Part shown: positions 3,895-5,459 of the stretch, piece after piece
Position numbering within the stretch: position 1 is the stretch's first letter
Layout: each line of letters begins with the position of its first letter
Sequence record: PQ863253.1
Reading direction: 5' to 3' (one strand)
Origin: Escherichia phage Ptacy1496
DNA length: 64,000 bases
The notes under the pieces: model-generated
Seen by the model: the letters and a program-made list of their open reading frames with translations, nothing else
The model's database searches: none
Told to the model about the DNA's origin: nothing
Translations under genes and position numbers: made by a program

Positions 3895-5459
3895 ATGAAA
3901 TTTAATGTATTAAGTTTGTTTGCTCCATGGGCTAAAATGGACGAACGAAATTTTAAAGACCAAGAAAAAGAAGATCTTGTTTCCATTACAGCCCCAAAGC
4001 TTGATGATGGAGCAAGAGAATTTGAAGTAAGCTCGAATGAAGCTGCTTCTCCTTATAATGCTGCATTCCAAACAATTTTTGGTTCATATGAACCAGGAAT
4101 GAAAACTACTCGTGAGCTTATTGATACATATCGTAATCTCATGAATACTGTTGAATGCTTTCAGAAATCGTTTCAGATGCTATCGTCTACGAAGATGATA
4201 CTGAAGTCGTAGCGTTAAATTTGGATAAATCTAAATTTAGTCCAAAAATTAAAAATATGATGTTAGATGAATTTAGTGATGTATTAAATCATCTATCGTT
4301 TCAACGAAAAGGTTCTGATCATTTTAGACGTTGGTATGTTGATTCAAGAATTTTCTTTCATAAAATCATTGATCCAAAACGTCCAAAAGAAGGCATAAAA
4401 GAATTACGTAGATTAGACCCTCGCCAAGTTCAGTATGTTCGCGAAATTATAACAGAAACTGAAGCTGGCACAAAAGTAGTTAAAGGTTACAAAGAATATT
4501 TTATATATGATACTGCGCACGAATCATACGCATGTGATGGTAGAATGTATGAAGCTGGCACAAAAATAAAAATTCCAAAAGCTGCTGTTGTTTATGCCCA
4601 TTCTGGATTAGTCGATTGCTGTGGCAAAAATATCATCGGGTATTTACATCGTGCTGTTAAACCTGCTAACCAATTAAAATTATTAGAAGATGCTGTAGTC
4701 ATTTATCGCATTACTCGTGCTCCTGACCGTCGTGTTTGGTATGTAGACACAGGTAATATGCCTGCTCGTAAAGCTGCTGAGCACATGCAACATGTTATGA
4801 ACACGATGAAAAACCGTGTAGTATATGATGCATCAACAGGTAAAATAAAAAATCAACAACATAATATGTCTATGACCGAAGACTATTGGTTGCAGCGCCG
4901 TGATGGTAAAGCTGTGACAGAAGTTGATACTCTTCCTGGTGCTGATAATACTGGCAATATGGAAGATATTCGTTGGTTTAGACAAGCTCTTTACATGGCA
5001 TTACGTGTTCCTCTTTCACGCATTCCACAAGACCAACAAGGCGGTGTGATGTTTGATTCTGGAACTAGCATTACACGTGATGAATTAACGTTTGCTAAAT
5101 TTATTCGTGAGTTACAGCACAAGTTTGAAGAAGTTTTCCTAGATCCACTTAAAACAAATCTTTTGCTTAAAGGTATAATCACAGAAGATGAGTGGAATGA
5201 TGAAATAAATAATATTAAGATAGAATTTCATCGGGATAGCTACTTTGCTGAGCTCAAAGAAGCAGAAATTTTGGAACGAAGAATTAATATGCTAACCATG
5301 GCAGAACCATTTATTGGTAAATATATTTCTCACAGAACTGCTATGAAAGATATTTTGCAGATGACTGATGAAGAAATAGAACAAGAAGCCAAGCAAATTG
5401 AAGAAGAGTCTAAAGAGGCTCGTTTCCAAGACCCCGACCAAGAACAAGAGGATTTTTAA
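3895..5459 (+). CDS. 20: Portal vertex protein gp20, reading frame interrupted near 4147-4160 in this sequence
   Basis: N-terminal 105 aa (from ATG 3895) in frame 1 end at stop 4210-4212; remaining ~430 aa continue in frame 0 from 4155; both parts portal-like; total span not a multiple of 3. Confidence 0.85.

Follow-up and report, generated by a model that had tools for sequence, protein, structure and literature searches.

In the sequence record of Escherichia phage Ptacy1496 (PQ863253.1) the portal gene, gene 20, is divided between two reading frames, and this raises the question of whether the interruption is a property of the phage or of the record. We addressed this in a 64,000-nucleotide stretch of the record, referred to here as the window, which is a Tequatrovirus (T4-like) genome segment that extends from the last part of gene 17 as far as gene 38. 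Both the gene order and the lengths of the encoded products are of the T4 type (gp18, 659 aa; gp19, 163 aa; gp21, 212 aa; gp22, 269 aa; gp23, 521 aa; gp24, 427 aa; gp34, 1289 aa), and the portal neighbourhood follows the order 19, 20, 67, 68, 21, as for the T4 gp20 gene. The nearest public relatives of the window are UTI-E4, vB_EcoM_G4498 (G4498) and Pinarejo, which are mosaics and 98.7–99.1% identical to it.

Two open reading frames of the portal gene

The single ORF of ~520 aa expected of a T4-like portal is absent from the window, and two ORFs in different frames are found in its place. The N-terminal ORF (3895–4212, plus strand) opens at ATG 3895 and runs for 105 codons to a TAG at 4210–4212. 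It has a GGAG Shine-Dalgarno sequence 6 nt upstream of its start (3885–3888, plus strand) and a putative T4 late promoter, TATAAATA, at 3859–3866 on the same strand, 29 nt 5' of ATG 3895, which matches the T4 late-promoter consensus and is presumed to be the gene 20 promoter; a second late-promoter-type motif of this sequence was not found from 3895 to 4155. Codons 1–84 of this ORF are identical to T4 gp20, through N84, and are followed by 21 codons that are not of gp20 and then by the TAG. The C-terminal ORF (4155–5459, plus strand) starts at ATG 4155, is read in the -1 frame with respect to ATG 3895 and encodes 434 aa, formed of the dipeptide ML and then gp20 residues S93–F524. Immediately adjoining ATG 4155 is a TGA at 4152–4154 (plus strand), which is created by the lesion described below and bounds any frame-switch window on its 5' side; it stops the C-terminal frame and not that of ATG 3895. 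In total the span 3895–5459 measures 1565 nt (3 x 521 + 2) compared with 1575 nt for gene 20 of the relatives, a difference of 10 nt. A preliminary description of this locus, made from the sequence alone, had reported a portal gene that is split over two frames with the remainder continuing from 4155, a stop just upstream of that point, and a span that is ~10 nt short and not a multiple of three, and all of these observations hold.

Profile searches placed the two ORFs side by side on the same family. The portal profile PHROG 213 was matched by the N-terminal ORF over positions 2–76 (E = 4e-11) and by the C-terminal ORF over positions 80–512 (E = 8e-213), as consecutive segments, and the C-terminal ORF also matched Pfam PF07230 (Portal_T4) at positions 21–433 (E = 4e-188). 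These matches, taken with those to T4 gp20, therefore identify both ORFs as consecutive parts of one portal gene, and no second gp20 copy is present within the window. The two ORFs jointly reproduce T4 gp20 (PF07230; PHROG 213; PDB 6UZC, 3JA7), but differ from the family in that the frame is broken and residues 85–92 are destroyed, while the other members examined have one uninterrupted ORF at this point.

Anatomy and distribution of the lesion

We aligned the nucleotide sequence with those of Pinarejo and UTI-E4, which placed the lesion, and every one of its differences, at 4147–4159 (plus strand), where the reference ATGAATAACTATGAAGTAGATAATGCAGTTTCAG is replaced by ATGAATACTGTTGAATGCTTTCAG in the window. 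The alignment resolves into deletions at 4147|4148 (1 nt, A), 4149|4150 (5 nt, ATGAA), 4154|4155 (2 nt, TA) and 4158|4159 (2 nt, AG), together with an A-to-T substitution at 4152, and thus comprises five changes inside 26 reference bases. The minimum edit distance is 11, made up of ten deleted bases and one substitution, for a length difference of 10, and the sequence passes through three frames in turn, with N84 in the first, AAT GC (N90-A91) in the third, and the -1 frame from S93 on. Such an alignment of gene 20 to its relatives had been proposed in the preliminary description as a means to define an indel at the junction, and it returned a private and complex lesion: the net loss of 10 nt was as anticipated, but a single indel was not, as the loss is spread over four deletions and accompanied by the substitution. 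Four scattered deletions and a substitution would fit a pattern of base drop-out, which a single mutational event would not normally be expected to give.

Several routes to this lesion were considered and were either rejected or not supported. The short direct repeat TTTCAGA...TTTCAGA, to which the preliminary description had drawn attention at the junction, is indeed present on the plus strand at 4159–4177 (copies at 4159–4165 and 4171–4177, with a 12-nt period), but it is neither a signature of the junction nor its likely cause, since the repeat is wild type in all close relatives (GTTTCAGAAATCGTTTCAGA, encoding VSEIVSD). Slippage between the two copies predicts a clean 12-nt in-frame deletion, and the repeat is both intact and native. 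Likewise, a parent allele with GTT (V88) and GCT (A91) would reduce the lesion to four pure deletions, but no such allele was found: it is absent from IMG/VR, where four loci have other codons, and from 528 phage records, the best of which was 99.1% identical with two mismatches. Templating from a quasi-palindrome at 4063–4077 was not supported: its arms are only 73% complementary, and it is one among 23 inverted pairs of a comparable kind within 650 nt. An ectopic template was not supported either. The best within the window was an 11-mer on the minus strand at 37382, against an estimated ~0.3 hits expected by chance, and a search of the window for an ectopic copy of the 17-mer with ≤3 mismatches gave nothing convincing. 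Finally, a natural divergent patch carrying a single-base error would, once repaired, read NTV(E/D)MLSEIV, which fits the motif poorly and is without D89 and A91.

We searched for the lesion in other sequences and found it only in this record. The flanking 211 nt are identical to the window in 107 phage records, and all 107 have the intact segment. When the actual window sequence was used over the same 211 nt, the best match was 95.0% among 913 matching phage records, and over the whole of gene 20 it was 99.0% among 815 matching records. The same sequence in related functional phages would, by the preliminary description, have refuted its reading, but the lesion occurs in none of ~900 matching phage records and its exact junction is absent from IMG/VR, GTDB (one genome per species) and the JGI metagenomes. 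A gene index look-up found the product of neither gene 20 ORF, and a protein search with the 105-aa ORF as query found no protein with its out-of-frame tail. Furthermore, the frame is open across the lesion point in all 59 IMG/VR gp20 loci, which range from 99% to 41% identity.

The remainder of gene 20 is undamaged. Outside the lesion we counted five codon differences from Pinarejo, comprising four synonymous changes and I198V, and no further stops or indels. Residues 93–524 of the C-terminal ORF are those of UTI-E4 gp20 except for I198V, and UTI-E4 gp20 is in turn 100% identical to T4 gp20 (PDB 6UZC). An established pseudogene would be expected to show further inactivating changes or relaxed selection, and no such decay is seen beyond the lesion. 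As a separate observation, the five codon differences from Pinarejo and UTI-E4 all fall within 18 codons (4486–4539, codons 198–215), a clustering that suggests a short recombination patch and not scattered mutation.

The lesion itself removes residues 85–92, NYEVDNAV, a wing-domain motif. These residues belong to a stretch that ranks among the most conserved of the gp20 family: E87, A91 and I95 do not vary across the 59 gp20 loci, D89 is found in 58 of them, and even the most distant loci, which are metagenomic and ~41–43% identical, retain HPECDMAI at the NYEVDNAV position. Published truncations of T4 gp20 bear directly on this region. [quoted passage not shown] Because of these results, a protein initiated at ATG 4155, near residue 91, is not expected to be functional, and a frame-corrected read-through product would remain without the conserved residues. 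The portal is the initiator of head assembly (PMC4493910), and a propagating phage therefore cannot carry the lesion allele.

Record error, null allele or recoding

The split gene could be functional if ribosomes switched to the -1 frame within 4155–4209, whether by frameshifting or by a hop similar to that of T4 gene 60, or if the products of the two ORFs assembled in trans, and we give this very little credence. Bypassing and split genes are known in T-even phages and would provide precedents, the 58-nt overlap of the ORFs (4155–4212) formally leaves room for a -1 shift, an ATG stands precisely at the start of the second frame, and only 12 copies of the portal are needed per head. However, there is no slippery heptamer of the form X XXY YYZ between 4140 and 4212, overlap included, and -1 re-pairing by a single tRNA would keep at most two of three codon positions, and that at only three of the 19 codons examined. 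The sole take-off codon with an adjacent stop, TCG 4207, has its landing site at 4296, 86 nt downstream, so that ~45 more conserved residues would be lost, and other matching take-off and landing codons occur at chance level only. The RNA fold of 4130–4270 has an energy of -27.2 kcal/mol (z = -1.6), with 12 of 200 shuffles folding at least as well. ATG 4155 has no Shine-Dalgarno sequence, and translational coupling or termination-reinitiation is impossible because the upstream ORF does not end until 57 nt past this ATG. Any product of the split gene would be without the invariant E87 and A91 and without the nearly invariant D89 (58/59 loci), N-terminal truncations of gp20 at 74, 87 and 103 are non-functional or insoluble (PMC4493910), and the two-frame arrangement is seen in 0 of 59 related loci and none of the ~900 matching phage records. 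A viable T4-like phage with a working portal would require either a frame switch without a canonical slippery site or an 84-residue N-terminal and a 432-residue C-terminal piece acting in trans, with the loss of NYEVDNAV tolerated either way, and we see scarcely any chance of this; programmed recoding is very unlikely, as is a designed two-piece portal. Among known systems, the locus resembles T4 gene 60 bypassing and -1 frameshifting in dnaX and the tail-chaperone G/GT genes in that two frames of a T-even gene overlap close to a short repeat, but differs in having no slippery heptamer, no conservation and no workable take-off/landing pair with a stop. Likewise, genes split by homing endonucleases (T4 39/60, and Aeh1 nrdA with mobE) also encode one protein in two consecutive ORFs, and homing-endonuclease ORFs do occur elsewhere in the window, but here the junction loses 10 nt, nothing is inserted, no ORF lies between the halves, and the second of them lacks a ribosome-binding site.

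We consider it probable that the interruption of the portal gene is an error in the sequence record and not a property of the phage, and most likely the split portal is not a real feature of its biology. A technical cause is what we infer from the lesion: gene 20 would be canonical and 1575 nt long but for a short stretch of poor consensus in which ten bases were dropped and one miscalled. Such a stretch could stem from a gap in coverage, from the joining of contigs to close the circularly permuted genome, or from manual editing, and the real phage would then have a normal 524-aa portal that is identical or nearly so to T4 gp20. The scattered anatomy of the lesion, its uniqueness, the undamaged remainder of gene 20, the essentiality of the gene, the lack of a second copy in the window and the lack of a template above chance all argue for a record error. 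Against it is the otherwise high quality of the window, which has only two 1-nt indels relative to G4498 across 22.2 kb and, besides the gene 20 lesion, only three small indels relative to UTI-E4 across 12 kb, at one of which the split copy is UTI-E4's own rnlB. The usual platform errors, moreover, are single-base homopolymer indels and not a 10-nt scramble. As the rest of the window is clean, a strictly local error would need a special cause, such as a contig-closure join or a coverage gap. Alternatively, the lesion may be real DNA, in which case a complex deletion event would have turned gene 20 into a recent, unconditional null allele and the genome could not form heads alone; the carrier of the allele could be a defective molecule from a metagenome or mixed lysate, a helper-propagated variant, or a laboratory construct. 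We regard this as possible but unlikely. With such a clean surrounding assembly a local error of purely technical origin is not what one would expect by default, the absence of decay fits a very recent event equally as well as an artefact, and the frame-split genes in the records of close relatives (rnlB and alt in UTI-E4, pseT in Pinarejo) indicate that frame disruptions do occur in this group of records. However, rnlB, alt and pseT are dispensable in T4. In addition, it is difficult to see how one biological event would yield five separate changes within 26 nt, a search for a template for templated or quasi-palindromic mutation found none above chance, and the lesion is common to no independent sequence. 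The preliminary description had ranked an error ahead of a mutant allele and both ahead of recoding, and with a private lesion and no recoding signals the evidence leads to the same order, although the mutant it had in mind was conditional-lethal: a frameshift that also costs invariant residues would be an unconditional null.

The interruption is mainly a matter of quality control, and the gene 20 record needs resequencing and correction, or a flag that marks the gene as disrupted. Left uncorrected, automated annotation gives two portal fragments, which comparative studies could misread as recoding or as a split gene. Were the lesion real in a viable phage, for which we allow only a very small chance, it would overturn the requirement that the wing-domain N-terminus be intact for the T4 portal to function.

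Other features of the window and its relatives

Deposited Tequatrovirus genomes commonly contain small frame disruptions. In UTI-E4, rnlB is split (L003, 10688–11693) and the gene is intact in the window, the split being traceable to a single-base difference at window position 11296, and alt, which is also intact in the window, is split in the same phage (L002, 25073–27131). Likewise, pseT (polynucleotide kinase) is split in Pinarejo (L073, 851–1755) and intact in the window. These records resemble that of the window gene 20 in that small indels have caused a gene that relatives have intact to be annotated as two neighbouring CDSs, but UTI-E4 rnlB differs in having a single-base indel, compared with a cluster of five events in an essential gene.

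An extra ORF was observed at 2568–3212 (plus strand) in the interval between gene 18 (tail sheath) and gene 19 (tail tube), where T4 is not known to have a gene. It encodes 214 aa from its first TTG and is annotated in relatives as 'gp19.1 hypothetical protein'; it matched PHROG 5104 (unknown function, E = 6e-82) but none of the Pfam families. Its Cys-rich and D-H...N...N stretches look HNH-like by eye. Compared with UTI-E4, 4 nt are inserted in the window at 2571, close to where this ORF starts.

Two ORFs matched homing-endonuclease families. That in the nrdB/nrdA interval (42797–43528, minus strand; 243 aa) matched PHROG 655 (E = 9e-56); Pinarejo is without it and there nrdB and nrdA are nearly adjacent, and from its sequence the ORF looks like a mobile endonuclease insertion. 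That in the gene 32/gene 59 interval (51142–51774, minus strand; 210 aa) matched PHROG 7504 (E = 2e-132) and has a counterpart in Pinarejo, for which the annotation is likewise that of a homing endonuclease. Relative to Pinarejo there is also a 10-nt tandem duplication, TTTAATTTAA, at 51089–51098, shortly before the start of gene 32; in T4 the gene 32 leader is the A/U-rich translational operator of this gene.

The thymidylate synthase gene td (46347–47207, minus strand) is one continuous 286-aa ORF in the window. In Pinarejo it is annotated as two pieces ~330 nt apart, presumably separated by the td group I intron, and the window phage appears to be intron-less at td. Finally, the region 24742–28854 (minus strand) contains tandem adjacent Alt-like ORFs of 685 and 683 aa, as in G4498, which appear to be paralogous ADP-ribosyltransferase genes.
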